A DNA stretch of 23,427 nucleotides from a virus: the UHGV virus genome UHGV-1543744. One strand, 5' to 3'. The position numbers were made by a program, and so were the translations under genes. A model generated the notes under the pieces. It did no database searches, was not told the origin of the DNA, and worked only from the letters and a program-made list of their open reading frames with translations. Shown here piece by piece: positions 976 to 23,427 of this stretch; the first letter of the stretch is position 1; each line of letters begins with the position of its first letter.

Positions 976-1007
976 ATCCCTATTCCCATCATTAAATAAT
1001 CGGACTA

Positions 1008-1035: not shown

Positions 1036-1056
1036 AACCCGTACTTAAGCTGGCTA

Positions 1057-5101: not shown

Positions 5102-5263
5102 CGGTGTTCACCTTTTTATTCACGCGCCGGATATCACCCGCTGCTTCACGGCGCAGCCAGTAGTTGTTCTCGTCAACATTTCGCCCTTCGGCGGGCAAAA
5201 GGTCACCGCGGGCAGGGTCAGGCACTGACCGCCCTTTAACAGGTTTCACAAACATGAAGATTC

Positions 5264-6712: not shown

Positions 6713-7032
6713 TGCGGAAAGTACCTGTACGGGCCGACAAGCCAGCCAAAACTCTGCGGCATGTCGAGTTTCTCCACTTCCGTAACCGACGAGCGGTTTT
6801 CGTAAAAATGGCTGATAAGCATCAGCATCCCCAGACGAATATCATCCGGCAGTTGCAGCCCGTCCGGATCGCTGTCCGGAATGGTTTCATCCGGAGCATA
6901 GAGCTTCCGGTTCAGATACGTTTCCGTCCGCTTTTGCGCCGCACAGGCCAGCAGTTGCAGATGGCGGTCATCAGCATCGAAATCCTCATCCAGCCGGAGT
7001 TGGGCTTTAATCTCTTCCATTGTCAGAAGCAT
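6709..7032 (-). CDS. Putative head-tail connector (gp6-like) protein
   Basis: 107 aa, acidic, second gene after the major capsid protein. GAGGG Shine-Dalgarno. Confidence 0.45.
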   Translation of the reverse strand: MLLTMEEIKAQLRLDEDFDADDRHLQLLACAAQKRTETYLNRKLYAPDETIPDSDPDGLQLPDDIRLGMLMLISHFYENRSSVTEVEKLDMPQSFGWLVGPYRYFPQ

Positions 7033-7034
7033 AC

Positions 7035-7235
7035 TCAGCCCTCTTTACTGGTCGTGGCTTTTTTCTCTTTTGTCGCTTTACTGCTTTTTGCACTGGTTCC
7101 GCGCTCTGCTAACCCGGCCTGAAGTGCAATCTCCTGCACCCGGGCAGGAAGCGCCCCGTCGTCATACTCACCGGCCCGAATGACCTCAACACGCATACCG
7201 TCCGGTGACCATTTCAGATCTTGTTTCAGGATCAT
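7035..7235 (-). CDS. Small Lys-rich protein, unknown (possible head-associated protein)
   Basis: 66 aa ORF directly after the major capsid gene and the GC hairpin. C-terminus is Lys/Ser/Thr-rich (SKATKEKKATTSKEG). Weak Shine-Dalgarno. Confidence 0.4.
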   Translation of the reverse strand: MILKQDLKWSPDGMRVEVIRAGEYDDGALPARVQEIALQAGLAERGTSAKSSKATKEKKATTSKEG

Positions 7236-7256
7236 GATTCTTCACCCGTCAGAACA

Positions 7257-7278
7257 GGGGGCGCGGTTCCGCGCCCCT
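7257..7278 (-). other. GC-rich stem-loop just downstream of the major capsid gene
   Basis: GGGGCGCGG-TT-CCGCGCCCC: 9-bp perfect G/C stem with a 2-nt loop, 7 nt after the capsid stop codon. No U-tract follows, so it is not a classical intrinsic terminator. Confidence 0.5.
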
Positions 7279-7284
7279 GAGTGA

Positions 7285-8490: not shown

Positions 8491-8504
8491 CGTATTTCTC
8501 CTGA

Positions 8505-9155
8505 TTAGAAGTTCAGATTTTTCAGTGCATTCAGTGCAGAGCTCACATCCTCAGCGTCGCGCAGGGACAGTGCGCCATAGCCCCCGGCCATGAATGCTTT
8601 GGCCTGGGTACGGGAGAGTCCGACATCACGCAGGACTCTTTCGATTTTTTTCTGTTCGGGGATTTCCCCGCGGGCCAGTGCGTTCTTGACGTCGCTGATC
8701 CGCGCCTCGTCGTTAGACGGGAACGTCACCAGGCTGACTTCCCAGAGGTCGATTTCTTTCAGCAGAAAGGCTTCTTTGCTCCGGTCGTATTCCCAGTCTT
8801 TCAGGACGTACCCAATAGAAAGGCCGGTTAACGAACCGGCCTTCATGTGTGCATGTGCGCGTTTTGCGAGGGGATCATCATCAATAAGCAACCGTCCCCT
8901 GACGTAAAGCCCGACATCGTCTTCCTTCATTTCGGTGTAAACACCGATGGGTTCATCCATGCGGTGCTGCCAGAGCAGCGCAGGTAACGCTTTTCTGTCA
9001 CTCCACGCCCGCAGGGAAGCAGCAAATGCCCCGGACATCACCACATCATCGTGGCTGTCCTTTACACCAAAGACGGAGCCATACCCTTCAAACTCACCGG
9101 AGTCACTGACAGATTTCAGACTCAGCGGTACATCAAGACGTTGTTTCGTCTGCAT
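8505..9155 (-). CDS. Prohead protease (HK97 family-like)
   Basis: Positioned between portal and major capsid genes. Start moved to ATG at 9155 (MQTKQRLDVPLSL...), which has an AAGGA Shine-Dalgarno. The ORF-track start at 9191 has none and would overlap portal further. Confidence 0.7.
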   Translation of the reverse strand: MQTKQRLDVPLSLKSVSDSGEFEGYGSVFGVKDSHDDVVMSGAFAASLRAWSDRKALPALLWQHRMDEPIGVYTEMKEDDVGLYVRGRLLIDDDPLAKRAHAHMKAGSLTGLSIGYVLKDWEYDRSKEAFLLKEIDLWEVSLVTFPSNDEARISDVKNALARGEIPEQKKIERVLRDVGLSRTQAKAFMAGGYGALSLRDAEDVSSALNALKNLNF

Positions 9156-10374
9156 TGGCGTTATCCTTCTGCTTACCGGCCTTACTGCCATCGGAGGGTT
9201 TCGTGGTCATGTTCATCGGTGTGAGATAGACATCACCACCGGGACGCGGATTCATATCTTCCAGGTCGCGGCAGTCATTGGGAGAGTAAATTCCCCAGTT
9301 AATCCCGGTGGCGTAGGCTTCAAAACGGGACTTCATATCCCCGCGCAGTAACGCCCCGGCGTTAAATTTGGCGTAATAAACGCCCTGCTTACTTTTTCGT
9401 ACCAGTCCGGTGTTGATCCGCTGTTCGATGCGGGTCAGATACGGCACCAGTGAATAGTTGATAAATCCGAGCCCCAGTTCTTCGATATTGTTGAAGGTGG
9501 CGCGATCGGTGTTCTGCACCATGTGCAACGGCACCCGGAACAGACGACAGATTTCTTCAAGCTGAAACTTGCGGGTTTCCAGGAACTGGCTGTCCTCGGC
9601 GTTCAGCGCCATCGACTTCCAGTCCAGCCCCATCTCAAGGATCATCGGGCGGTGAGCATTACCAAGCCCGGTGTGACGCTCCTCAAAATCTTTCTTCAGG
9701 CGCTCGTAAGCCTGATCTGACAGCGTCTGCTCTGTACGCAACACACCCGACGTCACCGCGCCATTGCTGAACAGTCTGGCCCCGTGCTCTTCGGTCGCTG
9801 CCGCCAGCGATATTGCCTCGCGGGCATAGGCGATGGGATTCAGTCCCACCAGACCGTCCAGCGTCAGCGTGCGCACATGCCAGATATCTTCCTGGCTCAG
9901 TACATCCGTGGAGCCGTCCGGGAATGTGACCTGGTAAACCGGTTCCCAGCTACTGTTAAGCTTCGGTACCACACAACCTGGGTCGACGGGCAGCAGTTCA
10001 GCCACTTCGCCAAATGCTTTCACTTTGTAGGCGTAAAAGTTTCCCCGCAGGCACAGACAGGTGACCACCAGCTCCCAGAACTCCTGCGGCGTCATATAGC
10101 CATTGGGACGCGTGGAGATCAGCTTATGCAGACGTTCGCCGGTGGCTCTCTGTTTCAGGCTGCCGTTCAGGTGATACAGGTTGCAGGGCAACATCCCGAC
10201 CGACTCCGCCAGCACCCTGACGCAGGAAAAAACCGCCGTCAGTCGCATGGCCCGCTGGCTGCTGATCTGCTTTCCGGTATAGGTGTCATATGACAGCCCG
10301 ATAGCATCCGCCAGCTCTGCTGGCGTGGTCACCGGTGCGTCACTTTTTCGTTGAAATAATCCCGAAAAGAACAC
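9133..10374 (-). CDS. Portal protein
   Basis: 413 aa, immediately downstream of the large terminase and upstream of the protease. Start codon is GTG at 10374 with a strong GGAGGT Shine-Dalgarno 6 nt upstream. Acidic, Lys-rich C-terminus. Confidence 0.75.
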   Translation of the reverse strand: MFFSGLFQRKSDAPVTTPAELADAIGLSYDTYTGKQISSQRAMRLTAVFSCVRVLAESVGMLPCNLYHLNGSLKQRATGERLHKLISTRPNGYMTPQEFWELVVTCLCLRGNFYAYKVKAFGEVAELLPVDPGCVVPKLNSSWEPVYQVTFPDGSTDVLSQEDIWHVRTLTLDGLVGLNPIAYAREAISLAAATEEHGARLFSNGAVTSGVLRTEQTLSDQAYERLKKDFEERHTGLGNAHRPMILEMGLDWKSMALNAEDSQFLETRKFQLEEICRLFRVPLHMVQNTDRATFNNIEELGLGFINYSLVPYLTRIEQRINTGLVRKSKQGVYYAKFNAGALLRGDMKSRFEAYATGINWGIYSPNDCRDLEDMNPRPGGDVYLTPMNMTTKPSDGSKAGKQKDNANADETTS

Positions 10375-10556
10375 TATTTACCTCCGCCGACAGACGGCTG
10401 TGTACGGTCGAGATATCGCGCCACCAGCCACGACCAGAACAGGCACAGCGCCCCGGCAACAACAAACCCCGCCGGGGGATAAATCAGCCAGGCACCATAC
10501 GCCAGCAAAAGCGCACCCAGCACGCCCACCAGAGGCGCGAGAATCAGCATGATCAT
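10374..10556 (-). CDS. Small membrane protein with two predicted transmembrane helices and a charged C-terminus
   Basis: 60 aa with two hydrophobic stretches and a charged tail ([14 protein letters not shown]). ATG with GAGGT Shine-Dalgarno. Lies between the terminase and portal genes and overlaps the portal start by 1 nt. Confidence 0.5.
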
Positions 10557-10567
10557 AATTACCTCAG

Positions 10568-12301
10568 TTAAAGCGAGCGGATCCCGTAGGACTCAATGTG
10601 ATCAGACAGCGTGTCTTCTTTCTCGTACAGCATGGCTCTGCCAACCGCCATAATCAGCGCAACTGCACCATCAATTTTGTTTTCCGCCTGCTCTTTGACG
10701 GGCTTCACCACATCATCGTTACCCGGAATGGTTTTGCCGACCACATTGCCGATACACCAGGTCATGATGGGATTGCCGTCATGATGAAAGCGCTCCGATT
10801 CAATCGCCGCTTCCAGTTCTTTCATCGGATCGGACATGTTGGTGTAGTTCTGAATGATGGTGATGGGGTTCAGGTCTTCATCAGCAAGGTCATGCGACAA
10901 CCCGGTCGCCCCGAAGGGGTCGATGGGTGACTCACTGACCGGGCTGATTTTGTTCGCCGCTTTGGCCTCCTCGAGGATGTAGCGATAATCCACCTCTGCA
11001 CCATCGGTAACGGTCAGAACGCCCATTTCCACCCATTTCTGAAAGCGTTCGGCTGTCCGGCGATCTTCATTTTTCTCGACGCTGTACACCGTGTCATACG
11101 GTACCCAGAAGCGCGGAGCCACACTGTAGTAATGCGTTTTACCGTCAATCTCGCGGGTATAAAGTCGCGCCATGCTGTTCATATCCAGCTTACGCGCCAG
11201 GTCAAAGGCCAGAATGCACGGCTGCCCCTCGAACTGCTCAAGGGTCAGTGATTTATCCTCGCAGCTCTGCCAGCTCACCAGGTTGAAATACGCCGAACGC
11301 GCCGACACCCAGATATTGAGGTGTTTTGTTTTAAAGACGTTTGCCAGACGGGCGTTATTTTTCGCACGCTGCTGCTGACTTAACAAAAATTCGCGATAAA
11401 CCGACACGCCAATATTTGGATTGGCTTTTTCCAGCACCTGCGGGTCGGTCCAGTCGTCACCTTCATCAACGGTATAGATGATCCCGAACAGTTCATCGTT
11501 AGGCACCGAGCCGTTGAGCATCTCGATAACTTCCCGCCGCTTGTCGTAGCACGGCCCCTCAATGTTGTACCCGGCAGTAGTAATGGCCCACATCAGTGGC
11601 TGACGTCGCGCCCCCATCCCGGTAAGCATCGTGGTGTAAAGCGCATCGGTGGCGTGCTCGTGATATTCATCCACCACCGCACAGTGGGGTGATGATCCAT
11701 CACCGGGGTTACCGATCAGCGGTTCAAACCGCGCGCCATCCTCCGGACGGTTCATGTTTGAGGCGTTAACCTCAATCCCGAACGCTTCCGTCAGCATGGG
11801 TGTGCGTTTACACATCAGTCGCGCCGGGCGAAAGACTTCCCACGCCTGTTTCTCTGTCGTGGCACCGGAATACACTTCCGCGCCAAACTCGTTATCACAG
11901 GCAAAACAATACAGGGCAACACCGGCAGAGATTGCTGATTTGCCGTTCTTACGGGGGATTTCGGTATACACCTCCCGGAAGCGGCGCAACCGGGTGCCTT
12001 TATTGACCCAGCCAAACGCACAGCAGATCACAAATAGCTGCCACGGCTCCAGCGTGATGGGCATCCGTTTAAATGCCCACTCACCCTTGGTGTGCGGCAA
12101 CAGCTGAATAAATTTGGCGGCCCGTTCAGCCAGATCCTTGTCGAAGCGGTAACGAAACGACTTACTTTTTTCCGCCATCAGGTCATCAAGATGGCGCTGG
12201 CAGGCCTGAATCACAAACTGGCAGGCCACAATCTTTCCGCGCACGACATCCCGGGCATACTGATTGGCAGCATTTACGTTGGGGTAAGATTTCCGGCTCA
12301 T
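10568..12301 (-). CDS. terL: Terminase large subunit
   Basis: 577 aa, directly downstream of the small terminase subunit. Size and position fit; the NTPase and nuclease motifs were not aligned explicitly. Confidence 0.75.
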
Positions 12302-12314
12302 GATTCGATGATTT

Positions 12315-12800
12315 TCAGATTGTCAGAAACGGGTTAGTGGCTTTCTTCTTCCCCGCCAGGCCAATCAGACGCTGTCGGCTGCTGGGGTCGAGTCCGAGCA
12401 TTGCCCCCGTGCTGCTCATCTCGGACTCCTGTTCTTTTTTGGCGGTCAGCTCCGGATTTTTGACCATGCCACCCATTGCACCGGTGATGGTGTTACCCTG
12501 TCTGGCAATATTTTTCACGGCACGTCGCCAGAACTCATAGGCCACACACCACCGCTCAAGTACCGCCAGGTCAGTCACGCACAGCAGGCCCTGACCGCAG
12601 AGTTCTTTGGTTGTCAGTTGCCACATGATCGTGGCGAGAGGGAGATCTTCTTCAGCGAACCACTCCGGTGGCTCAACACCTTTGATGGGCGTAAAAACAG
12701 GTTCATCTTTATTCAGGGCTCGCTTGCCGGGGTTTCCGGCCAGCGCCTTGCGCGCCGTTGGCTTGGGGCGACGCCCGGAACGCCCCGCCGTTCCAGCCAT
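12315..12800 (-). CDS. terS: Terminase small subunit (P27-family-like)
   Basis: Gly/Arg/Lys-rich N-terminus ([29 protein letters not shown]) typical of P27-type small terminases. Start moved to ATG at 12800, which has an AGGAG Shine-Dalgarno 8 nt upstream. The ORF-track start at 12809 is a GTG abutting the Shine-Dalgarno. Confidence 0.7.
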
Positions 12801-13010
12801 ATGCGGCACTCCTGGTTAAATTTCATTTTTCGCGGGTATAAAAAAACGATGGGGCGGGCAGTCCCGGATAGTCAGGGCTGTAGAGATTTGACTACCCCCT
12901 CCCCACTGGATTCAGGTTACTGCTATTCCGTTAATCGCTGCTTACGGGGATAGCTGCGTTGTGATTTTGACCATTCAGGTCGCCGCTATTTCCTCACCGA
13001 TTGGGTGCTA

Positions 13011-13034
13011 CGCGTGCGCGTACTTGTCCCGAAA
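13011..13034. repeat. Box CGCGTGCGCGTACTTGTCCCGAAA upstream of terS, repeated at 19144-19380
   Basis: The 14-mer CGCGTGCGCGTACT is identical at 13011-13024 and 19144-19157. TACTTGTCCCGAAA is identical at 13021-13034 and 19367-19380. A 12-mer copy lies at 19263-19274. All copies are in the same orientation. Confidence 0.6.
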
Positions 13035-13076
13035 TACCAGAAACCGCCAGCCAGAGGATGATTTCCCTCTGGTGGT

Positions 13077-13358
13077 CTACCTTTGCCTCTTGCCGCCATT
13101 TAACCGGAAGGCGTTACCGTTCGGTTGCGCTATCCCCATGCGGTGTTGCGTTTCGGTAACAGCTTTATGCAGGTCGCCAAAGTCCTCAACCTTCACGGGC
13201 GGGCGCTTCACGTTCTCCAGACACGTTTCACGGCGGCGCTTTATCCATTCCCGATCATCGTCCTCGGTGCATAACAGCATGACTTCCATCCATCGCGCTG
13301 CGGCGCGTCGGTACAGCCCTTTTGCTTCCAGATCCTCGGCTTTACTGTCGTTTACCAT
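13077..13358 (-). CDS. Small putative transcriptional activator, PerC-like (tentative)
   Basis: 93 aa. N-terminal motif ...KAEDLEAKGLYRRAAARWMEVM... resembles the PerC/Pch family as I recall it; this was not verified by alignment. ATG with GGGGGAG Shine-Dalgarno. Last gene before the terS upstream region and followed by a hairpin (CCAGAGG-N9-CCTCTGG). Confidence 0.35.
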   Translation of the reverse strand: MVNDSKAEDLEAKGLYRRAAARWMEVMLLCTEDDDREWIKRRRETCLENVKRPPVKVEDFGDLHKAVTETQHRMGIAQPNGNAFRLNGGKRQR

Positions 13359-13360
13359 GT

Positions 13361-13831
13361 TTATCTCCCCCAGAATGGCGTTTCATCGTCGAATGGTGGG
13401 CGTTGGTCAAAATCATCAGGGGTATTATATAACTCCCATCCCGGCGCGGATTGTGTTGTGTGGCCCCTGCTGGCTCCGCTTGCTTTGACTGATTCGGCCC
13501 GCTTCCCGCCGGGGCGTACCGTTCTGGCGCTGATCACGCTGTCGGCTACTACCTGATAACCTTGCTGTGTACCGCCATCCTTGCCCGTCCACTGATTGAT
13601 CTGCATCGCTCCGGCAACACTGACTAAATCGCCTTTAACGTGTCCTGCCAGTGCGTCGGCCTGTTTGCCGAATGCCACCACGCCCAGCCAGAAAGTAACC
13701 TCTCCGCCCTCTGCTGCATGGCAGGGCAGTGCCACCGCTAACCGGCCCATTGCCATGCTTGTACCGTTTGCTGTGGTACGGGTCTGGGGATCTGCCACCA
13801 GCCGCCCGTATGCTGAAATTTGTGCTGTCAT
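13361..13831 (-). CDS. Single-stranded DNA-binding protein-like (OB-fold)
   Basis: 156 aa. Residue pattern W..FGK..A...KG..V.V.G.L..NQW...Y.VVAD is consistent with an SSB OB fold, and the C-terminus is acidic with a PF tip (DDFDQRPPFDDETPF...). ATG with GAGGAAA Shine-Dalgarno. Confidence 0.5.
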   Translation of the reverse strand: MTAQISAYGRLVADPQTRTTANGTSMAMGRLAVALPCHAAEGGEVTFWLGVVAFGKQADALAGHVKGDLVSVAGAMQINQWTGKDGGTQQGYQVVADSVISARTVRPGGKRAESVKASGASRGHTTQSAPGWELYNTPDDFDQRPPFDDETPFWGR

Positions 13832-14130
13832 AGATATTTCCTCATGTAGTCACTACCTCCGGGGATAATTTTCATTTCTTCCCTTAAAGGCCACTGCTCC
13901 GCCATTGCTGCGGTCGAGTGATTCCCGTCATCACGTCCGGCCTGTGCTGCCGTCCAGTGTGTTGCATATTCTGTAAATCCAATTTCTGCTGGCTGCCTCA
14001 TCCAGTGGGCGATCATCCTCAAGGTCATTTGCAGGCTTTGGGTGTCGCCCTGTAATGCGCGTTTGTCAGTAAACCCCTTCAATGCTTCACGCTCCTGATA
14101 GGTCATTTTCTGGCTGGTTTCTGTATTCAT
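13828..14130 (-). CDS. Hypothetical protein
   Basis: 100 aa, ATG with AAGGTGG Shine-Dalgarno, ATGA-coupled to the SSB-like gene. First gene after the iteron region. Confidence 0.5.
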   Translation of the reverse strand: MNTETSQKMTYQEREALKGFTDKRALQGDTQSLQMTLRMIAHWMRQPAEIGFTEYATHWTAAQAGRDDGNHSTAAMAEQWPLREEMKIIPGGSDYMRKYL

Positions 14131-14183
14131 TGCCCACCTTCGTTATAAGCTACCCCCCCCATAGAATCTTTTTGGGGGTGTAA

Positions 14184-14433
14184 TATCCCTACCAATCCCT
14201 ACTAACTGTCTCAGGCCACGAATGGCAAGGCTTTCAGACTGGTAGGCATTCAATTTTGTTGCCCTACATAACCCTACTTATCCCTACTAAATCACTTCAA
14301 CGGCATTTTACTGCCTGTTTTATTTGGTAGGGATATGTAGGGATAAGTAGGGATAAAAATATATATCCCTACCTAGTTTAAAGCCTTGCTACGTCTGGCC
14401 TCGTCTCGTTTTTAGTAGGGCAGTAGGGATAAG
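14184..14433. repeat. Iteron cluster, putative replication origin
   Basis: About 12 copies of the core GTAGGG/CCCTAC. Reverse copies lie at about 14187, 14197, 14262, 14272, 14282 and 14367. Three perfect tandem 10-bp units GTAGGGATA(T/A) lie at 14327, 14337 and 14347, followed by the AT-tract AAAAATATATAT (14355-14366). Further forward copies are at 14414 and 14423. The cluster is immediately 3' of the primase-helicase stop. Confidence 0.6.
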
Positions 14434-14449
14434 TGCCGCCGTAAAAGTT

Positions 14450-16891
14450 TCAATCATCACTCTGCCCGCTCTCCACACCGTAAGCGCGTGGCATGAACTC
14501 CTCAGCCTTCTCGTTATAGCCAACGTTGGTTTGCGCTCTGCCGTTAATGCTTCTCGTCAGGTAGCTGGCTCGGTACTCTTTTGCTGCTGATTTTATGGCG
14601 CGTGAAAACTTATTGACGGAAAGCGGTTTACCCAAACCGTGATACTCCATAAACGCCAGATAAAGATGATAAAGATACGTCCTCGGCTCTGGCTGGCCTG
14701 CCCATGTACCTCCGCCCATCATCATGCCTTTGGGTTCGTTCATGAAAAAAAGCGCCGCACACATATCGACAACCGGATCCGTGCCGCGTTTAACCTCTAG
14801 CGCCTCCTGCGAATCGCGCTGCTCTAGTAATAGTGCTTTTGCTTTGTTCTGGTCGGCAAAGGTGGTTAGCAGGTGGCGGATAATCACCGGGATTTCTCGC
14901 CTGATTTTTGCTGTTAAATCCGGGTCTTTGTCTGCGTCTGATACCGGGTTATTAAACGGGAATATCACGCGGCGGCGGGCAATGCCCCCGTTTCGCTCCG
15001 TGAATGTCATCGGCTCGTTATTGGTTGCCATAACAACGGCATTTATCACGGTTGTGAACTGCTTTTCATATTTCCCATCAATCTCTACCGGATCGCCGCC
15101 CGTAATGGCTTTAATCCCCGCACCCTCTCCAACATAGCGGGTCTGGTCAGGCATAATAATCAGGCTTTTTCCTACGAACTGCGCCCGTCCCCGTGCGGTG
15201 TCCAGCGTCATCATGCTACCGCTGGCGGTGTTGTGTTCACCTGCCAGCGTGGTTGCTATACTGCTGAATACGGATTTCCCACTGCCGCCCTCGCCAGTTA
15301 TCTCAATGAATAGCTGCCAGTCGTGACGCTTCGCCAGCACCATAAACAAGGCTGCTTTGATACGCTCGGCCTTATGATGGTCGCCAGCCGTTGCATGATT
15401 CAGCCAACGGGTAAAATTGGGGGCGCTGGTGGTAATATTTTCCCCCGGCGCTGGCGGGGTGTAGGTGATCCCATTGTGGTTCATCAGCCAGTTACCCGGC
15501 GAATGGGCGGAAAACGTCTGCGTGGCGAGGTCATAAACGCCGTTATCAAAACCAATCAGATCCCCGCTCCGCTCACCAATTACCGGTATTTGCAGCTTCA
15601 TGGTTGCGACAACCGATTTAATCCCCTTTTCGGTGTAGTGGGCTTCGTGCTCGTCGAAAATTGCCACCATAACCCTTTCTAATTCACTGTCTGGTAGCTT
15701 CACCCATACGCCAGATTCGTAGCAGTAAACAGTGCCACTATCAGGGTTAACCGCCAACATATCCCATCGAGATGAAAGCAACCGCGCTTTCTGGCTGGCT
15801 GCCATTTGTGCAATATCTCCGACTTCGGCTTTACGGCGGGATTTACCGCCCGCAATGGCCTGTAGTTGTGGTTTCACGGCTTCCCCCTGAATCTGGTACA
15901 TCGAATCGTTAAACGCAGCCGTAGCGACTTCCAGCCCGTTTTGCTGGCGGTAGTCGTCCCAGTCGGCTTTGTAGTCTGTCGGCGGCAGCGCCACCCAGCC
16001 AGCCACGGATAATGCTGCTTTCTCTGCGGCATCTTTGCCCGTGTTCGCCTGTTCGTCCTGCTGGTGGTCGTTATCTGCGGCAATGATAATTTGCGACTGC
16101 GGGTGTTTCCGGCGCATTACTCTGGCAACGTGGATCAGGTTCCCGGCGTCAATTGCCGACACTGTAAGCGCGTCCGGGCGCATCAGGTGAACGGACAGGG
16201 CCGTCGCCAGCCCCTCGGCAATTAATACGCTCTGCGGCTGTTCCGGTGCGTTAACGGCGTGATATGCCCCGCGCTTTGCTGAACCTGTCAGGAGTCGCTT
16301 CTCTCCCTGCGGTGTAATGGTTTGCGCTGCTGCCACTGCGCCGGATTCGTCCACCAGCTCCAGCAATAACGAACCATCCGGCATTACCGGATATTTAAAC
16401 CCGGTCAGCCCTTTTGATTGCAGGTAATCAGATTCGCCCTGTGTGGCACTCTGGCGCATTCCGGCATACAGACGGGCAAACGTAGCCCTTCGCTGCTCTG
16501 CGTCCTCTGCTGCCTGTTTCTGGCGCTCCTGCTCACGCTGCTGGCGGTCAGCTTCCAGTTGCTCCCTTCTATGGCTCGCTGCCACCGGATCGGTTTCCGC
16601 TGCCCGGTAATCAATACCCAGCACATCAGCGGCAAGCCTCGCCGCTTCTGTGGTGGCGCAGTTGTTCACCTTCTTAATCAGGTCTAAACCGTCACCAGCG
16701 CCACACTGATTGCAGATAAAGCTACCGCGCCCGTTGTCGTCGAATCTGAAACGGTCTTTTCCACCACATGCAGGGCATGGAGAATGGCGGCGCGATGAAT
16801 CAGGCACGTCGATAGACAATCCAGCCAGCACATAAGGCCAGCGCCCGGCGGCGGCACTGGTCACTTCGCGGATAAGGTCGATATTACGCAT
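14450..16891 (-). CDS. DNA primase-helicase (zinc ribbon, TOPRIM-like primase core, C-terminal P-loop NTPase)
   Basis: N-terminal CxxC...CxxC zinc ribbon (CPACGGKDRF...CNQCGAGDG), acidic TOPRIM-like motifs (AEG...IIIAADNDH), and a C-terminal Walker A (GEGGSGKS). Start moved to ATG at 16891, which has a perfect AGGAGG Shine-Dalgarno. The ORF-track start at 16948 is a GTG. Confidence 0.8.
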   Translation of the reverse strand: MRNIDLIREVTSAAAGRWPYVLAGLSIDVPDSSRRHSPCPACGGKDRFRFDDNGRGSFICNQCGAGDGLDLIKKVNNCATTEAARLAADVLGIDYRAAETDPVAASHRREQLEADRQQREQERQKQAAEDAEQRRATFARLYAGMRQSATQGESDYLQSKGLTGFKYPVMPDGSLLLELVDESGAVAAAQTITPQGEKRLLTGSAKRGAYHAVNAPEQPQSVLIAEGLATALSVHLMRPDALTVSAIDAGNLIHVARVMRRKHPQSQIIIAADNDHQQDEQANTGKDAAEKAALSVAGWVALPPTDYKADWDDYRQQNGLEVATAAFNDSMYQIQGEAVKPQLQAIAGGKSRRKAEVGDIAQMAASQKARLLSSRWDMLAVNPDSGTVYCYESGVWVKLPDSELERVMVAIFDEHEAHYTEKGIKSVVATMKLQIPVIGERSGDLIGFDNGVYDLATQTFSAHSPGNWLMNHNGITYTPPAPGENITTSAPNFTRWLNHATAGDHHKAERIKAALFMVLAKRHDWQLFIEITGEGGSGKSVFSSIATTLAGEHNTASGSMMTLDTARGRAQFVGKSLIIMPDQTRYVGEGAGIKAITGGDPVEIDGKYEKQFTTVINAVVMATNNEPMTFTERNGGIARRRVIFPFNNPVSDADKDPDLTAKIRREIPVIIRHLLTTFADQNKAKALLLEQRDSQEALEVKRGTDPVVDMCAALFFMNEPKGMMMGGGTWAGQPEPRTYLYHLYLAFMEYHGLGKPLSVNKFSRAIKSAAKEYRASYLTRSINGRAQTNVGYNEKAEEFMPRAYGVESGQSDD

Positions 16892-17225
16892 GGTTGCCTC
16901 CTGCCACGGTCGCGCCCATGTCTTTAACCATGCTTTGCCATATCTCACGCCCGACGTCAGTCAATCCGTCATTAGTGACGCAACGCTCAAGAAGCTCGAC
17001 CCCCACGGTTTCCCACTGCGGGTAGGACACTTTCATGGCTGCCAGTGTGTAGCTATCGATCAGGCTGCGAACGCCTTTTACTCCATTGACGATTTCCACA
17101 CGGACGGCGAGGCCGTCCGCATCAACCATGAAATAGTCACCGCCGCTGGTGGAGGTAATGTGGTTATACAGTGCCGACGCATACTTATTCGCCAGCGCAT
17201 TCAGTCTGAAATTTTTAGTAATCAT
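16884..17225 (-). CDS. Hypothetical protein
   Basis: 113 aa, ATG with GAGGGGG Shine-Dalgarno. Its stop overlaps the primase start by 8 nt. Confidence 0.5.
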   Translation of the reverse strand: MITKNFRLNALANKYASALYNHITSTSGGDYFMVDADGLAVRVEIVNGVKGVRSLIDSYTLAAMKVSYPQWETVGVELLERCVTNDGLTDVGREIWQSMVKDMGATVAGGNHA

Positions 17226-17234
17226 GTCGCCCCC

Positions 17235-17861
17235 TCAGTGCGGCAGCGGCATTTCAGGCCAGCCGTTTTCATCCAGTTCAGCTATAAAGCTGTTGTGAAG
17301 TTCAGCAAGCGTTTCACGCCCGAACGGGGTCAACTCGCCGCGCTCCGTGTCGATCATGGCCTGATAAAAAACAATGGCGTTCGCTGTTCCCTGCTCAATG
17401 CCGTAGCGCTCAACCATTGCGCCCTCCATGTTGTTAGCCATCGCCAGACGTTCCGCGAACGGGTAAACCACAATCCCCGCCGTGCCATTGGAGTAAATCG
17501 CCACCTGCGATGAAGTGCCGTCAGACTCAGTTACCGTGGTTGTGCCGTTTTCGCGCTTCATCTCAGAAATGAACGTCGCAGCAATCAGCCAGCGCCACAT
17601 AGTGACGTTATGCTGCGCGGTGAAGTCGAACCAGCCACGCGCCCCGCCATCAGCAACGGCAAAATGAATGGCGTATCCGATATCTGGCTTATCGTCGTAC
17701 TCTCCGGCGTCAAGGCCGTTCACGGCGCTCTCGTAGCTGATAAGAGCAACCTGCTCATATCCCCCGGCATCATTGCGGGTCATGATATTGACGCCGTGCG
17801 GTGTGGCTTCGGCGTGTAATAAGTCGGCATTTCCCGATTTAATGGTCGGTGCGTTGCTCAT
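17235..17861 (-). CDS. Hypothetical protein
   Basis: 208 aa, ATG with GGAGGG Shine-Dalgarno, ATGA-coupled to the upstream gene. No recognisable family. Confidence 0.5.
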   Translation of the reverse strand: MSNAPTIKSGNADLLHAEATPHGVNIMTRNDAGGYEQVALISYESAVNGLDAGEYDDKPDIGYAIHFAVADGGARGWFDFTAQHNVTMWRWLIAATFISEMKRENGTTTVTESDGTSSQVAIYSNGTAGIVVYPFAERLAMANNMEGAMVERYGIEQGTANAIVFYQAMIDTERGELTPFGRETLAELHNSFIAELDENGWPEMPLPH

Positions 17862-18121
17862 GCGCTGCCCTCCGCATCAATTCTGGCTATATCGACAATC
17901 GTCAGGACTTTACTCAGCCAGCAATACGCGATGGCTGCTTGCTCAACTTCGAGGAGTGGTAATAAATCGGTCATAACGTGAGCCAGCCCATTGCGGGCGC
18001 GGGTCATGCGTTCTGCTGTTCGGTCCGCCAGCGTAAAATCATCCGGGTATGCTTCTTTACGAGATAGCATCGATTCGGCTTCCAGATCTGCCGGGTGGCG
18101 ATAGATGGTATTTATGTTCAT
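17858..18121 (-). CDS. Hypothetical protein
   Basis: 87 aa, ATG with GGGAGGG Shine-Dalgarno, ATGA overlap with the upstream gene. Confidence 0.5.
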   Translation of the reverse strand: MNINTIYRHPADLEAESMLSRKEAYPDDFTLADRTAERMTRARNGLAHVMTDLLPLLEVEQAAIAYCWLSKVLTIVDIARIDAEGSA

Positions 18122-18432
18122 TTGCCCGCCCTCCCTTTGGCTTCTTTTTCACTGATTGAGCGCAAGAATGCGGCGTTTGCAGCGCTATCGTTCAGCGCCA
18201 GCGCAACTTCTCCGATATGTCCCAGCATTGCGCCTAATCTGTACATATCAGCCTTAGCGCTTTCCTCCGGGTAGCCATCGCTACCAGCCGCCCAGAACAT
18301 GAGGCTACCAATGGCACTTACGCCCAGCATTAAATCATCCACGGCATCACTGGCGCAGCTCTCAATTCCTTTCAGATCATCAGGCGTACAACCATCAAAT
18401 TTGCAGGACACTAAATCGTTATACATGCTCAT
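18118..18432 (-). CDS. Hypothetical acidic protein
   Basis: 104 aa, ATG with GAGGTGG Shine-Dalgarno, ATGA overlap with the upstream gene. Confidence 0.5.
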   Translation of the reverse strand: MSMYNDLVSCKFDGCTPDDLKGIESCASDAVDDLMLGVSAIGSLMFWAAGSDGYPEESAKADMYRLGAMLGHIGEVALALNDSAANAAFLRSISEKEAKGRAGK

Positions 18433-18608
18433 GCCGCCACCTCACGAACGCGGGTAATCTGGATGTGGGAAAGGCGTTCATTTCTGGCCTGATTTAGCGC
18501 CTCAGCTTTGGCGCTGATCGCGCTGCGGGCGTCAACGATATAAACGAACTCGACTAATTCGCCGCTCCGGGCGGTGGCGCATCCTGCAACACGGAAGTAA
18601 TTAAGCAT
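18429..18608 (-). CDS. Hypothetical small protein
   Basis: Start moved to ATG at 18608 (MLNYFRVAG...), which has an AGGGGG Shine-Dalgarno. The ORF-track start at 18638 is a TTG. Confidence 0.45.
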   Translation of the reverse strand: MLNYFRVAGCATARSGELVEFVYIVDARSAISAKAEALNQARNERLSHIQITRVREVAA

Positions 18609-18792
18609 GTGCGCCCCCTGTGCGAATACGTCCGGCAAAAAAGCAAACGTGATCCCGCGCCAGAATGCGGCGGGCTTCCTGCTCAGTCTCTGCGGCGATA
18701 TGGTGAATTTTGACGGTAATTGTCGGCATATCGCGGCGAACTGCGGCGATAATCCAGATAAATTGCGGTTTTTGGGTAGGGGTAGTAGCCAT
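18601..18792 (-). CDS. Hypothetical small protein
   Basis: Start moved to ATG at 18792 (MATTPTQKPQFIWIIAAVRR...), which has an AGGAGG Shine-Dalgarno 8 nt upstream. The ORF-track start at 18960 has none. Confidence 0.45.
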   Translation of the reverse strand: MATTPTQKPQFIWIIAAVRRDMPTITVKIHHIAAETEQEARRILARDHVCFFAGRIRTGGAHA

Positions 18793-18950
18793 TATGGCAG
18801 CCTCCTGTAACTGGGATTTATTCCCACCACCGGAAACGCCAATTTCACTGGTGGTGAGCTGAACAGGGTTGGCGTAACCGGCGTTACAGGAAACCGGCGC
18901 GGATCGCTCCGCCCCCATCCAGCCCACCATTACTTTTTGAGCAATATGGG

Positions 18951-19550
18951 CTATAGCCATATCGCTGGGAAAGAGGTGTGCAGATGCGAGGACACAAAAA
19001 AGACGCTCGGCGCGTCATGTGTCGCCTGTAACATTATCAGGACGCCAATCCCGGCACCAGATTTTGCTGGTGCGCTATAACCATAAACCGGGTTGGCGAT
19101 AGTCGGCAAGCCCTTTTTTATGGACTCCAGAAACTCACCTTCGCGCGTGCGCGTACTGTTGCATAAATTCCCTGCATCTAGTGGTGATGTCAGAAAAATC
19201 TTCCCGCCTCGTGTAGTGATGATGGGAAAATCTTCCTCGCGTAGTGACCCCCAATAAATCTTCGTGCGCGTACTGGTCTCGAAACTCTCCTCGTCACCAC
19301 GACGAGAAAATGAGGAGCTGGCATTAGCTGGCACTGTTATGCCAGCTTCGCATTCATGCGCGTGCGTACTTGTCCCGAAAACACCAAGATTTGTAAAGAT
19401 CTGGCGGTGGCAAATGTCAGGTTTTGACAGGTTCCAAACGTCGCTATTTGTCGCAATCTGGCGGCGGGCTGCTTTGCTCCAGACGTTAACATTTGCATAC
19501 ATCAGGCCAGCCAGGGGAAAGGCTTTATTCTGGATGGCGGCATTAAGCAT
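18951..19550 (-). CDS. Questionable ORF spanning the repeat-rich region
   Basis: 199-aa ORF with an ATG at 19550 overlapping the antirepressor stop, and a G-rich weak Shine-Dalgarno. It runs through the tandem repeats, three hairpins and the box shared with the terS upstream region, and uses many rare codons (ATA, CTA, ACA, AGT). It may be a regulatory or noncoding region instead. Confidence 0.3.
   Translation of the reverse strand: MLNAAIQNKAFPLAGLMYANVNVWSKAARRQIATNSDVWNLSKPDICHRQIFTNLGVFGTSTHAHECEAGITVPANASSSFSRRGDEESFETSTRTKIYWGSLREEDFPIITTRGGKIFLTSPLDAGNLCNSTRTREGEFLESIKKGLPTIANPVYGYSAPAKSGAGIGVLIMLQATHDAPSVFFVSSHLHTSFPAIWL
19131..19310. repeat. Array of about six degenerate tandem repeats with a roughly 30-bp period
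   Basis: Units begin at about 19131, 19164, 19194, 19227, 19255 and 19281, with consensus roughly (G/T)AAAT(C/T)TTCC..CG..GTA(G/C)TG(A/G). Spacings are 33, 30, 33, 28 and 26 bp, so they are not locked to codon phase. Flanked by inverted repeats at 19054-19073, 19290-19306 and 19326-19347. Confidence 0.5.
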
Positions 19551-20376
19551 GATTAGCCCCCAGATGTTTAGCTAACCAGCGCTGAGAGAGGCGGATTAGC
19601 TCGGCTTTACGCAGGTCATATCCCATACCCATATCAATCAGCGTAATGTTGGTACTCTCCAGGTAGGCGAGGTGTTCCAGTTGCCCTGCGTTCATGCTGT
19701 CCCGTGGTTCGCCAGTAATGTCATTTGCCTGCGCCCACTGCTTCGCCGTCATGCCACCCAGCACGATACGGGCGATCATGTTGCTCTCGTTGCTGTAGTG
19801 GCGAGCCTGCGTCTGTTTACCCTGTTCTGCGCGGGCGCTTTCCAGCGCTACGCACATCGGTTTAAACAGGTTGGCGGCACTGATACGGGCTTTTAGCTGG
19901 CGACGATAGCGGGCGGCGATTTCAGGCACGCTACGCTGTAATTCTTCCTCGCACTGGATGAAATAACGGCGGATAGCGCGGCCCTGTTCAGTGCGTTCGA
20001 TCATTGCCAGTTCTTTCGCCATTCCGACACTTAACAGATAGTCTTTGCCGGGTCTGCCAGAGTGCTTAATCTTGCTGTAAGCCGCGCCATTCGGGCTTTT
20101 CCCCAGATTTGGGGAAATTGTTTTATGGACTGAGTAATCGTGCCCAATGGTGAAGTCATATTCAGAGATGCGATCAGTGATCCATGTAGAGAAGTCTTTT
20201 CCCACGCCCAACGCTTTGTGTAACGCTTTTGCGCTAACAATATTGGTTTCACGCCCACCGATATGACCAGGAATAACCGGGACAATTGTGGCAAATTCAT
20301 TACCGTTAATTGTTCCCTGATAGGCGTTCAGATGAGGGGCGGCCTCAGAAATTAATCTGCTTTTTTCGATGTTCAT
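19543..20376 (-). CDS. Phage antirepressor-like protein (Ant/Rha-type N-terminal domain with ORF6C-like domain)
   Basis: 277 aa. N-terminal segment ...IVSAKALHKALGVGKDFSTWITDRI... resembles antirepressor N-domains, and ...DYLLSVGMAKELAMIERTEQGRAIRRYFIQCEE... resembles the ORF6C/KilAC-type domain (from memory). ATG with GGAGA Shine-Dalgarno. Confidence 0.55.
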   Translation of the reverse strand: MNIEKSRLISEAAPHLNAYQGTINGNEFATIVPVIPGHIGGRETNIVSAKALHKALGVGKDFSTWITDRISEYDFTIGHDYSVHKTISPNLGKSPNGAAYSKIKHSGRPGKDYLLSVGMAKELAMIERTEQGRAIRRYFIQCEEELQRSVPEIAARYRRQLKARISAANLFKPMCVALESARAEQGKQTQARHYSNESNMIARIVLGGMTAKQWAQANDITGEPRDSMNAGQLEHLAYLESTNITLIDMGMGYDLRKAELIRLSQRWLAKHLGANHA

Positions 20377-20388
20377 TTTCAGTCTCCG

Positions 20389-20823
20389 TTAGGCGGCGGT
20401 GAGATTGTCCGGGTATAGGTTGAGAATGTCGGCAATTTCAGGCTGAGAAAGTCCCTGATAGCCGCCAGCGTCGGCGTTATGGTTCACAAGCCGAATAACT
20501 TTTAGAACGTCACCGCGCCCGGTAAAGCGATAGCGTAAATGTGACCCTATCCCGTCGGGGTTCTTTTCGTCTATACGCTCAAGCTGAATATCAAGCCTGC
20601 GCTCTAACTCGCTGGCGTAGTTCCTTCCAGATGAAAGGCGGCAATATTGCAGAATGTCATTTTCTGTCCATCCCTCTATACCAGTACGCAGCATATAGAC
20701 GCGGGCGCGGTGTTTCTTTGGGGTACGCTTAGGTACTTGTACCGGGCTGGTGGTCGGCGTAATATCAGACGTGCGAATATCTGAGTTAGCCGCCTGCTGT
20801 ACGGGGCGGTTTTTCTTTTTCAT
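20389..20823 (-). CDS. Hypothetical protein with basic, Pro/Thr-rich N-terminus
   Basis: 144 aa, ATG with AAGGTGG Shine-Dalgarno, start overlaps the AlpA stop by 1 nt. N-terminus MKKKNRPVQQ...PKRTPKKHRAR suggests nucleic-acid binding. Confidence 0.5.
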   Translation of the reverse strand: MKKKNRPVQQAANSDIRTSDITPTTSPVQVPKRTPKKHRARVYMLRTGIEGWTENDILQYCRLSSGRNYASELERRLDIQLERIDEKNPDGIGSHLRYRFTGRGDVLKVIRLVNHNADAGGYQGLSQPEIADILNLYPDNLTAA

Positions 20824-21041
20824 TACGCCACCTTTCCCCGGCGCTCCGCCAGCCAGTTGTGAATCTCAACCGCATCAAACGCAGTCACGTTATCTGTTAG
20901 CTTCACTGGGCGTGGAAGAGTGCCATTTTTAACCCATCTATCAATAGTAGGCAGTGAAACACCTAGCAATTCCGGCATGCGAAAGCGACGGATGTATCCA
21001 GTTGTTGGGATAGCTGATGATGCTGGCTTGTGTGCTGTCAT
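20823..21041 (-). CDS. alpA: AlpA-family (MerR-like helix-turn-helix) transcriptional regulator / excisionase-like protein
   Basis: 72 aa. Motif ...RMPELLGVSLPTIDRWVKNGTLPRPVKLTDNVTAFDAVEIHNWLAERR matches the AlpA/Xis helix-turn-helix family of P4-like elements and PICIs. First gene after the AT-rich leader. Confidence 0.7.
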   Translation of the reverse strand: MTAHKPASSAIPTTGYIRRFRMPELLGVSLPTIDRWVKNGTLPRPVKLTDNVTAFDAVEIHNWLAERRGKVA

Positions 21042-21121
21042 ATCTCTAGTAACCTCTCTGATAGCTCATGAAGTTACTTAAAGTTTAGTGGTTGCCCATA
21101 CAGTATTTCTATTAAGACTAG

Positions 21122-21174
21122 AATCTATTGAAAGAAATTATAAATCTATTGAAAAAATACTGATCCACTGAAAG
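21122..21174 (-). promoter_or_regulatory. Putative alpA-operon promoter with flanking operator-like direct repeats
   Basis: Minus-strand TATAAT (plus 21137-21142) lies between two perfect copies of TTTCAATAGATT (plus 21122-21133 and 21143-21154), with a third degenerate copy at 21162-21173. Repeats are spaced about 20 bp apart. No good -35 is visible. About 90 nt upstream of the alpA ATG. Confidence 0.3.
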
Positions 21175-21511
21175 ATTGCAAATGCAGGTGGGATAATTAT
21201 TTTCTTTATTTTCAATTAGTTACCAGTTTAAAAAATCATTGTTTTATCAAAGAGTTATATCTTTCATCGTCATTCATCATGTTTTTACATTTCCTTTTAT
21301 CTTTTATTATTCAATTGGTTGAGTCGGTTTATAATGGCTCATGATGGCTTAAAATGCTAATGATAGCTGGCGTATCTTTTAGAGATGGGGTGATTACAGA
21401 TGAACTAAGCCGAACAGATATAGCAATGGCTAGGCATAGAATTATCTATGCTGGTGGAGATGGGTAAACAGGTAATGCCCCGCCATTGCTTTGGAGGGGC
21501 GTGAAAAGTGA

Positions 21512-22162
21512 TTAGTCGAGATCGTGGACAGCTAATAAAGCCCGTGAGATTTTTTCTAGGAATGTGGCTTTTGCTATTCCTTTATGGGATATCCCTTCAT
21601 CCTTGATTAAGGTTTCTATGTCACGGTATATAGCTGTGCGATTAGGTTTCCCATTTTGGGTGTAGGAAGATGAGCCTGATTTTTTTATCAGCAGATGTAC
21701 TATCAACCCCATCATTTTCATTGTCCCGTTTTCCTCATCCTGCTTTCTATGCTGCCCACGTCCGCTGCGGTTGGTTTCTTTGATGTAGTTTACTAACTGG
21801 AGTCCTCCAAGGTTTCGGGCTTTTTCTTCCCAGCCCTTGGTGCCACGCAAATCATCAATCGCTTCTGATATTTTCTGAACAATTATTTCTGGTGTATTTG
21901 TGTCAATAAATGGGTAAGAAGCTAAGAAAATATCAAGGGCATGGCAAGGCTCGTCTTTACTAGTTTTTTCACCTCTGTACACCTTGATAGCTCTGGCAAG
22001 ATGAGTTCTGACAAAATCGACATATTCGAAATTTTCCTCAGGCACATCGCTAATGCGCATAGATGGGTTTAGGCCAGCCAAGGCCACAGCCATTTCATGA
22101 GGGGTAATCGATACAGATGAACAAAGCCGTTCGATTGGCGATTTTCTCAAGATGTTGTTCAC
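21512..22162 (-). CDS. Hypothetical cargo protein, translationally coupled to the integrase
   Basis: 216 aa. GTG start at 22162 with a strong GGAGG Shine-Dalgarno 5 nt upstream, overlapping the integrase stop (GTGA). Visibly lower G+C than neighbouring genes. No recognisable family or catalytic motif. Confidence 0.55.
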   Translation of the reverse strand: MNNILRKSPIERLCSSVSITPHEMAVALAGLNPSMRISDVPEENFEYVDFVRTHLARAIKVYRGEKTSKDEPCHALDIFLASYPFIDTNTPEIIVQKISEAIDDLRGTKGWEEKARNLGGLQLVNYIKETNRSGRGQHRKQDEENGTMKMMGLIVHLLIKKSGSSSYTQNGKPNRTAIYRDIETLIKDEGISHKGIAKATFLEKISRALLAVHDLD

Positions 22163-23427
22163 ATTTGCCTCCGGGCTTTATCGAATGGCGTTACGTTGTA
22201 GTCTTTTCCGCTTTCCAGTGCCACCAGCAAATCACACCACTGCGCCAGCGCCGCTTTACGCTCATCAAAATACTGGTGACGGTTATAGATACCTTCCACG
22301 CCTTTAATTTTGTGGTTGAGGCATCTTTCAGCCACTACGGGATCAACGCCCAGCGCGGCTAAATGGGTGCGGGCTGTGCGCCGGAAGTCGTGAATCGTGA
22401 AATTAGGCACATCCGGCATTTCAGCGCGAACCTTAGCCAGTGCTACGGGTAAAGTGCTTTCCTGAATATGTGGGATCATTCTGTTTTGCATCTTTCTGGC
22501 TGGCAGTACCCATGCGCTGTTGCATGAGAACGTTTTAAGCTCTCTCAGCCATTCGACGGCTGGCGGTGCTAATGGGATGTCTATAGCGTCGCCGTTTTTA
22601 CTGCGTTCTTCTGGTAAGTGCCAGATGCCTTTGTCCAGGTCGAACTCCTCCCAGCGGGCGGCGCATAACTCCATTTTGCGGACGCATAACGCTAACAGTA
22701 ATTTGAACGTGATTTCGTTCTGGCGACTGAATCCCTTAGCTGTGCGCATAGCCTGAAACAGTCGGATTAGTTCGCCACGTGTTAACCAGCGGTCGCGGGA
22801 AACTTCTTTCCCTCCGGCGTCTGCCACCTCAAAGGCTGAACACGGGTTAATCTCCAGTGCGTGCCGCTTAATGCCGTAGTCAAATATGCGGCGTGTCCAG
22901 CGCAGAACGTCCGTTGCTATGGTCGGCGCTCCACGGTCAACAATACTTTTCAGCATGTCGTCGATATGGCGCGGCTTCACGTCCTCCACCTTCATGCTGC
23001 CAATGCATGGGTTTATATCTTTGTCGATACGGCGGCGGAGTATATCGGGGTGCTTCCAGCGCGGGAGGATCTGACGCTCAAAGTATTCAGCGGCAAGCTC
23101 TGAAACGCGCATAGCGTTCTTCTCTGCTTCCATCTTCGCCAGTGCTTCGGTTTTGCGCTTCTGCTTCTCTCCTGCAACGTCATAGCCCAACGCAACGCGA
23201 GCCGATAGCTCTTTGGCTGTCTCTCTGGCCTTTGATAGTGATAGCTCGGCATATGAGCCGATAACCATTGCTCGCTGCTTACCTGCGAATTTATAGCGAA
23301 AGCGCCAGAAAGGGACTGTGTAGTTTTTGGGGTAGCAAATATAAAGGCCGTTGCCATCGGCCCTTCCTTCAAATCTATCTCCGGCCTTTATCCATGCGCG
23401 GATCTGCATGTCTGTAATCTTTGGCAT
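22159..23427 (-). CDS. int: Tyrosine integrase, P4-like family
   Basis: 422 aa. N-terminal DUF4102-like arm-binding region (MPKITDMQIRAWIKAGDRFEGRADGNGLYI...), then a catalytic domain with HxxR (FTIHDFRRTART) and the tyrosine region (GVEGIYNRHQYFDERK). The ATG sits exactly at the window edge, so the promoter and att site are outside the window. Confidence 0.85.
   Translation of the reverse strand: MPKITDMQIRAWIKAGDRFEGRADGNGLYICYPKNYTVPFWRFRYKFAGKQRAMVIGSYAELSLSKARETAKELSARVALGYDVAGEKQKRKTEALAKMEAEKNAMRVSELAAEYFERQILPRWKHPDILRRRIDKDINPCIGSMKVEDVKPRHIDDMLKSIVDRGAPTIATDVLRWTRRIFDYGIKRHALEINPCSAFEVADAGGKEVSRDRWLTRGELIRLFQAMRTAKGFSRQNEITFKLLLALCVRKMELCAARWEEFDLDKGIWHLPEERSKNGDAIDIPLAPPAVEWLRELKTFSCNSAWVLPARKMQNRMIPHIQESTLPVALAKVRAEMPDVPNFTIHDFRRTARTHLAALGVDPVVAERCLNHKIKGVEGIYNRHQYFDERKAALAQWCDLLVALESGKDYNVTPFDKARRQM

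Follow-up and report, generated by a model that had tools for sequence, protein, structure and literature searches.

The sequence analysed here, referred to as the window, comprises the 23,427 nucleotides of the UHGV virus genome UHGV-1543744. Its satellite part (12807-23427) is 99.96% identical to an approximately 12-kb island located between yicC and dinD in E. coli GDSC2239PM. The gene order of this island is int, ORF216, alpA, orf144, antA, ash/icd, a P4-type primase gene, ssb and perC, and the element is a Gram-negative PICI with a P4-like layout. The int gene (23427..22159, minus strand) encodes a P4-type tyrosine integrase with the Pfam domains Arm-DNA-bind_3, Phage_int_M and Phage_integrase. 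Its stop codon overlaps the start of ORF216 (22162..21512, minus strand), which encodes a predicted all-alpha protein of 216 amino acids, and this overlap suggests that the two genes are co-expressed. A 470-bp intergenic region with a G+C content of 34% precedes alpA (21041..20823, minus strand), the gene for a 72 amino acid Phage_AlpA/HTH_17 protein (Pfam PF05930, E = 7e-6; RefSeq annotation). No Rfam family was found in the int-alpA intergenic region. Approximately 2 kb downstream of it, within the ash/icd part of the alpA operon, Rfam models matched a C4 antisense RNA (P4 CI-like; 76.9 bits; 18847-18934, minus strand) and isrK (75 bits; 18996-19073, minus strand), which points to a putative RNA immunity of the P4 type downstream of the alpA promoter.

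In the window, two loci are joined that occupy distant positions in GDSC2239PM, the yicC-dinD island and a part of a lambdoid prophage. Positions 257-12904 correspond to the late region of this prophage, which resides at the intS/KplE1 site and encodes HNH, a P27-type TerS, an HK97-type head and a contractile tail. A 98-bp segment (12807-12904) is common to the prophage, where it lies between HNH and terS, and to the island, where it follows perC. It is probably a shared cos/pac region, a reading that would make the lambdoid prophage the likely helper. The join is present in no complete E. coli genome and represents either a recombinant or an assembly artefact. Between int and yicC, just past the right end of the window, four copies of ATGTACA/GTGTACA are found (L001 22629-22720); they are related to copies at the dinD end (L001 10640-10670) and look like the integrase arm-type sites of the island.

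Upstream of alpA, the minus strand carries a unit of four direct repeats in the order C-B-A-D, with start-to-start distances of 19, 21 and 16 bp. Site C (TTTCAGTGGATC; 21173..21162) is followed by two identical copies of TTTCAATAGATT, namely site B (21154..21143), which starts 19 bp past the start of site C, and site A (21133..21122), which starts 21 bp past that of site B. Site D (TCTTAATAGAAA; 21117..21106) starts 16 bp past the start of site A. On the plus strand, the two perfect copies read AATCTATTGAAA (21122-21133 and 21143-21154) and site C reads GATCCACTGAAA (21162-21173), with three mismatches. An earlier note on this DNA had described two perfect repeats and one degenerate repeat. 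The sequence and a repeat search confirm these three copies and their spacing of 21 and 19 bp, and the degenerate copy aligns with site C of all relatives; the complete unit, however, consists of four sites, and site D, a weaker copy that is recognisable only by comparison with relatives, had been overlooked.

An exact direct repeat of at least 12 nt at a distance of at most 30 bp occurred in none of 2000 dinucleotide-preserving shuffles of the 470-bp intergenic region, and at any distance in 34 of the 2000. Across the whole window, 13 occurrences of the 12-mer with at most three mismatches were found and 15.9 were expected. Because the word is thus not enriched in the window, the signal lies in the local cluster, for which chance is an unlikely source. 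Tandem Repeats Finder reported nothing in the int-alpA intergenic region, and the array motif was found neither in the rest of the element, nor in the att flanks, nor around the ATGTACA/GTGTACA copies at the ends of the island.

The intergenic region hardly varies among E. coli records (113 share at least 90% identity, almost all of them at least 95%), so that a comparison within the species has little power; relatives were therefore sought beyond these copies. They were gathered in three ways: from other E. coli alpA alleles, by an AlpA-profile scan of species-representative genomes, and from contigs encoding ORF216 homologues. The earlier note had reasoned that absence of the repeats from syntenic relatives would refute its proposal; instead, the 19/21/16 spacing or a near variant of it is kept in 14 of the 15 lineages examined, and the gene order int, ORF216, array, alpA is likewise present in 14 of 15. 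In every lineage whose ORF216 homologue is 32-99% identical (99, 82, 71, 68 and 32-34%), the spacing is exactly 19/21/16, and it is 19/20/16, 21/21/16 or 19/21/20/16 where the homologue is only 26-29% identical. The 16-bp offset between sites A and D is preserved in every lineage compared. In an alignment of the relatives, no block of the 390-650-bp intergenic region is as well conserved as the array, the remainder being poorly conserved, and the distance from the array to the alpA start is fixed in all lineages. The consensus of 44 array sites is TTTYAATRGAWT, in which T3 is invariant and T1, G9 and A10 are nearly so. These comparisons sustain the view that the repeats are an operator-like element, non-coding and conserved, in the region that controls alpA. 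This was one part of the earlier proposal of an operator-controlled early promoter; the assignment of the -10 hexamer, its other part, was not supported, as detailed below.

The array follows the ORF216 family and not AlpA. For the reverse comparison, a degenerate four-site pattern was searched for, which retrieved seven IMG/VR loci and 20 metagenome contigs. An ORF216-family reading frame lies upstream on the same strand at all 26 evaluable loci (6/6 in IMG/VR, 20/20 in the metagenomes), with homologues down to 26% identity to ORF216; in the 20 metagenome contigs, 270-440 bp separate its end from the array. The pattern was built from relatives and its recovery of relatives is expected; the informative part is that no array was found without the gene. 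In the opposite direction, one distant and decayed locus (L045) contains an ORF216-family gene and lacks the array. Loci with an AlpA that is 88-92% identical to that of the window carry no array when a different gene occupies the int-alpA slot, and the array precedes AlpA-family genes whose products are only 19-57% identical to the AlpA of the window (57%, 25%, 22% and 19% among them). For the loci compared, this shows that the array is co-inherited exclusively with the ORF216 family and independently of the AlpA allele. Such inheritance across recombination events is found here as it would be for a regulator and its operator, and it could in part reflect linkage, because gene and array are only 270-440 bp apart.

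The earlier note had also suggested that the binding protein could be supplied by a helper phage or by the host. The strict co-inheritance of the array with the adjoining ORF216 family points away from both sources. A blastn search of INPHARED with the array motif returned nothing, an exact two-copy search of IMG/VR returned only the element itself and chance matches in AT-rich viruses, and the probable helper prophage of the same strain contains no motif cluster. A phage origin of the motif was rejected on these grounds, as the INPHARED and IMG/VR searches gave no genuine phage match. The absence of a CI/Cro-type repressor gene, in contrast, could be corroborated for the satellite part of the window.

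ORF216 is the candidate for the protein that reads the array. Its family is small, with 36 clusters at 50% identity, and the gene is always located directly after an integrase gene. The protein matches only PHROG 30524, a family of unknown function, and searches of Pfam, NCBIfam, PADLOC and PDB sequences gave no match. AlphaFold2 predicted an all-alpha structure with a mean pLDDT of 90.4 when 24 diverse sequences were supplied, and a poor model (pLDDT 60.6) with 10 close sequences. No structural neighbour of the ORF216 model was found by Foldseek in PDB or BFVD at an E-value below 0.6, and a profile comparison between ORF216 and AlpA was negative. When HTH families were compared with 24 members, none was significant; the best matches were HTH_Tnp_Mu_2 (E = 0.012) and Phage_AlpA (E = 0.024), and each of the sub-threshold matches occurred in one or two of the 24 members. 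Conserved throughout the family are a TP, a GG and, within a basic segment (pI about 10) in the centre of the protein, a GRGxHRKxDE motif; the C-terminus contains a conserved G(I/L)xKSTFxxK sequence, which resembles an HTH recognition helix at the level of a motif.

A candidate for the alpA promoter emerged from the same alignment. A -10-like hexamer (A2, T6 and at least four of six matches) is found 17-18 nt past site D in seven of eight anchored lineages, and this is the sole position outside the repeats with a consistent -10-like hexamer. In the window it reads TAAACT (21087..21082, minus strand; TAnnnT), 18 nt downstream of site D; variants elsewhere are TACACT, TAGAAT, TATTCT and TAGTAT, and L038 has TAACCT. 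The location of this hexamer implies that site D overlaps the position of the -35 element, where its 3' half, TAGAAA (21111..21106), would be separated from TAAACT by an 18-bp spacer. With TAAACT as the -10 element, the other sites would lie near -52, -73 and -92, and transcription of alpA is predicted to start near 21075, at the foot of a leader hairpin.

Taken together, we find it moderately probable that the array serves as operator for the ORF216-family protein and controls a weak alpA promoter, that this protein is expressed together with int while the island is quiescent and that helper infection alters its action. Translational coupling of its gene to int makes it probable that ORF216 is produced in the quiescent satellite. 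There it would bind all four sites, on approximately the same side of the helix, and thereby set the level of alpA transcription. The array would end 18 nt upstream of a weak sigma-70-type -10 element (TAAACT), with site D overlapping the -35 of the alpA promoter. Upon a signal from the helper phage, the occupancy or the activity of ORF216 would change, and AlpA, the master activator of the satellite cycle, would be switched on. DNA binding by ORF216, the position of the promoter and the link to helper sensing are what we infer from the comparative data. Whether ORF216 represses or activates can be argued in both directions: its expression in the quiescent state fits a repressor, and the poor -35 together with the location of all sites upstream fits an activator. 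We lean slightly towards an Stl-like repressor over a phage-gated activator. Because the array always travels with its gene, ORF216 is the best candidate for the regulator of satellite induction that has long been sought.

The proposal of the earlier note that this region is the main induction switch of the element gains support from what is known of alpA, which in Gram-negative PICIs acts as the master switch that helpers induce (PMC6092414). In these islands AlpA is the master activator, and its gene is autoactivated and induced by helpers via an unidentified factor (PMC6092414, PMC11773190, PMC10803314). In EcCICFT073, a plasmid-borne alpA promoter responds to helper induction without other island genes (PMC6092414), which implies that a phage factor can act directly on the alpA promoter in at least one PICI and counts against a mediating role of ORF216.

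The most probable of the alternatives, although we regard it as unlikely, is a DNA-binding activator from the helper phage that would occupy the four sites and bring RNA polymerase to the weak alpA promoter. ORF216 would then be unrelated cargo, or a helper-specific accessory that is inherited together with the sites since gene and sites are matched to one helper. Helpers induce alpA in EcCICFT073 and EcCIMP1 through the unidentified factor (PMC6092414, PMC11773190), the P4 late promoter in front of vis, an alpA homologue, is activated by the helper proteins Ogr and Cox (PMC10111431, together with established knowledge), and the position of all four sites at or upstream of the -35 is a typical activator layout. 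However, the motif pair or array occurs in no phage record or IMG/VR contig except the element itself, and the lambdoid prophage of the same strain, which shares the 98-bp segment, is devoid of a motif cluster. Moreover, the motif is constant across widely diverged satellites and hosts and yet never accompanies another slot gene, despite the recombination of alpA alleles.

A second alternative concerns the position of the promoter and is compatible with any hypothesis on the binder, so that its probability and those of the binder hypotheses need not add up. According to the earlier note, a perfect -10 hexamer, TATAAT, is flanked by operators B and A and directs a transcription start near 21130. 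The hexamer (21142..21137, minus strand) lies in the spacer between sites B and A, abuts site B and is 3 nt upstream of site A. The statement that it has no recognisable -35 was confirmed by direct reading: at spacers of 16, 17 and 18 bp the upstream sequences are ATCAGT, GATCAG and GGATCA, respectively, none of which resembles a -35 element. A TGn extension is also absent, and a consensus promoter scan does not list the hexamer. In its favour, it is perfect and retained in all members of the near-identical lineage to which the window belongs, and the module of the L003 type has a comparable arrangement, with its second AATAAAATTTA repeat 1 nt from a TGTAAT. Outside this lineage, the 9-bp length of the spacer between B and A is kept, but its letters differ in every other lineage (TTTAGTTTC, TGCGTAAAG, TGATATATC, TGATGTTTT, TGATGGTTT, TGTCGATTT, AGTTACCTG, CTGTGAATA and others), and no other lineage that retains the array has the hexamer there. 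L047 contains a TATAAT in a different spacer, as chance predicts in AT-rich DNA. The hexamer is thus lineage-specific and probably not the main -10 element; that it is the working one appears quite unlikely to us.

It is highly unlikely that the repeats are bound by a nucleoid-associated or global factor of the host (such as H-NS, IHF or Fis) that silences or shapes the promoter. The region has 34% G+C and the motif is constant across host genera; TCAATAGATT agrees with eight of the ten positions of TCGATAAATT, which we take to be the H-NS nucleation motif; and a match to the IHF consensus is present at 21245-21257. The (near-)invariant G9-A10 and the strict 19/21/16 geometry, however, are not features of H-NS or IHF sites, and a host factor fails to explain why the array is found only beside ORF216-family genes and never beside other slot genes in the same hosts. 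The IHF consensus WATCAANNNNTTR is matched perfectly by TATCAAAGAGTTA on the plus strand, approximately 75 bp upstream of site C, and an equivalent match in L021 was read by eye from the alignment.

Binding of the repeats by AlpA itself, in positive autoregulation of alpA, is the least probable of the alternatives. Winged-helix proteins of the Xis/Vis/Cox type typically bind arrays of direct repeats, and AlpA activates its own promoter in EcCICFT073 (PMC6092414). AlpA was nevertheless rejected as the binder, since its alleles do not match the sites. Where AlpA is 88-92% identical and its presumed DNA-binding helix nearly unchanged, the upstream repeats are wholly different; where the array is the same, the AlpA-family proteins encoded behind it are 19-56% identical and differ across this helix. 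The motif is also absent near att, a further place at which binding of an excisionase-like AlpA would be anticipated.

Other genes occupy the same slot in related satellites, and every other slot-gene family brings its own operator-like repeats, located within approximately the last 100 bp before the alpA leader. A palindrome of the form TTCGCAACGAAAA-N4-TTTTCGTTGCGA is retained at 48-49% identity of the slot proteins and 45-59% identity of AlpA, and a CGGAATT..AATTCCG palindrome is retained at 35% slot-protein identity. Further families are accompanied by ACAGTA-N4-TACTGT, by two copies of GTGAG-N10-CTCAC, by two copies of GGAATATTCC 21 bp apart or by two copies of AATAAAATTTA 21 bp apart. 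Nearly identical AlpA proteins stand behind different operators in L003/L005 and in L004. The position between int and a regulator gene is a known site of accessory cargo, which counts against a regulatory role of ORF216. Tentatively, we consider it possible that the int-alpA slot of this widespread satellite family of Enterobacterales holds exchangeable induction cassettes instead of cargo, each composed of a helper-sensing regulator and its own operator in the alpA promoter, as a Gram-negative counterpart of Stl; the ORF216 family would then have a DNA-binding fold not recognised before, by which the four direct repeats are read. Unrelated slot proteins (L002-L008, L014-L030) share the N-terminal sequence F/Y-x-L-x-R-A-A-x-L-L-x-x-x-x-D-D-L, and some of them have only the C-terminal 50-120 residues and the downstream operator in common (L004, L015, L018 and L028; L007 and L025), which suggests that slot proteins are modular and recombine within the gene.

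Control of a satellite activation gene by a regulator and its operator is already known from Stl of the SaPIs and from the P4 promoter PLL with Ogr and Cox. As in the Stl system of SaPIs and other Gram-positive PICIs, a highly variable gene adjoins int, and an operator separates it from the gene that opens the activation operon; such variability is consistent with inducers that differ between helpers, and the island is quiescent until the helper acts. Different from Stl, ORF216 is co-directional with int and alpA instead of divergent, it has no detectable HTH domain, and its target would be the promoter of the activator AlpA and not the whole lytic operon directly; the likeness to Stl is drawn from comparative evidence. 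Gram-negative PICIs have been described as devoid of an Stl-type repressor (PMC6092414).

The P4 promoter PLL upstream of vis, which responds to P2 Ogr, P4 Delta and P2 Cox, is likewise an activator-dependent promoter in front of an AlpA/Vis homologue of a P4-type satellite. Cox acts there through direct-repeat arrays, and the window has P4-like C4/CI and isrK RNAs in the same operon. Motif and spacing differ, however, and the candidate binder of the window is encoded by the satellite; a TGT-N12-ACA dyad of the Ogr/Delta type has no match in 21042-21300 on either strand. The alpA promoters of EcCICFT073 and EcCIMP1, which are experimentally established switches that are autoactivated by AlpA and induced by helpers, precede the same gene at the same position after int, but the array of the window does not track AlpA and is tied to an additional gene that EcCICFT073 appears to lack. 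Co-oriented sites with a period of about 20-21 bp, extending from roughly -100 to -35 at promoters with a poor -35, are also known from OmpR at ompF/ompC and from the I1-I2 arrays of the AraC family. There is no relationship in sequence or family, and by no search was ORF216 identified as a winged-helix response regulator or as an AraC-type protein.

Several other possibilities were discarded. The AlpA antiterminator of Pseudomonas is much larger, consists of eight helices and recognises a GGGACG site between -35 and -10 (PMC9371919), and it is not comparable to the 72 amino acid Phage_AlpA protein. Site patterns for Ogr/Delta, CII, LexA and DnaA were not found in the region upstream of alpA. 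Replication iterons were rejected because there is no DnaA box, the primase gene is approximately 4 kb away and the distance between array and alpA start is the same in all lineages. A search of the literature on Gram-negative PICIs yielded no description of an island-encoded alpA regulator or of a defined cis element of the alpA promoter.

How helpers switch on alpA has been posed as a question from the description of Gram-negative PICIs in 2018 onwards, and once more for PICMIs in 2024. Should the slot gene together with its operator form a sensor-regulator, the question of induction would become accessible to simple reporter and deletion experiments, and the mosaic variability of the int-alpA region would be explained. 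PICIs and cf-PICIs spread virulence and defence genes, and their specificity for helpers could then be predicted or engineered.

A hairpin in the alpA leader (21078..21048, minus strand) is formed by AGUAACUUC and GAGGUUACU, and its 3' arm pairs with the Shine-Dalgarno region. RNAfold assigns it -14.6 kcal/mol, and the same hairpin is present in 22 leaders; loop lengths differ among them, and folding was performed for each sequence and combined with a hand-anchored count of pairs. Compensatory changes comprise G-C, C-G and A-T at one pair and an exchange of A-T for T-A at another. The arms in the window and in L002-L031 are CGUAAC/GUUACG, CAUAAC/GUUAUG, CCUAAC/GUUAGG, CGUUAC/GUAACG and AGUAAC/GUUACU. 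The hairpin ends 2-8 nt before the start codon and its arm pairs with the Shine-Dalgarno sequence in several alleles; the distant AlpA type of L043 and L038 has an analogous CUUCCAC/GUGGAGG pairing. The conserved hairpin suggests a translational control of alpA, for example a silencing of transcripts that read through from int and ORF216, which we propose because no minus-strand terminator was found.

Further minor features accompany the leader and the intergenic region. A 13-nt sequence, C(A/T)TCAT(G/C)AGC(T/C)AT in the sense of alpA, is present three times: far upstream (21334-21346), in the loop of the leader hairpin (21061-21073) and in codons 7-11 of alpA (21010-21022). The core of the hairpin loop, AGCTATCA, is conserved across many alpA alleles. 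The 13-nt sequence could be an AlpA site, an RNA-binding site or the product of chance. Most intergenic regions of the ORF216 type also contain three to five tandem units with a period of approximately 10 bp, located 250-520 bp upstream of the alpA start codon (L017, L021, L031, L033, L039, L043, L044, L046 and L047). The sequence of the unit is specific to the lineage, examples being three copies of TCTAAGGGTC in L046 and three to four copies of GTCATTAAxx in L031. In the window, where Tandem Repeats Finder reports none, a weak tandem signal can be read at 21334-21368 on the plus strand as ATGGCT, ATGGCT, ATGCTA and ATAGCT.
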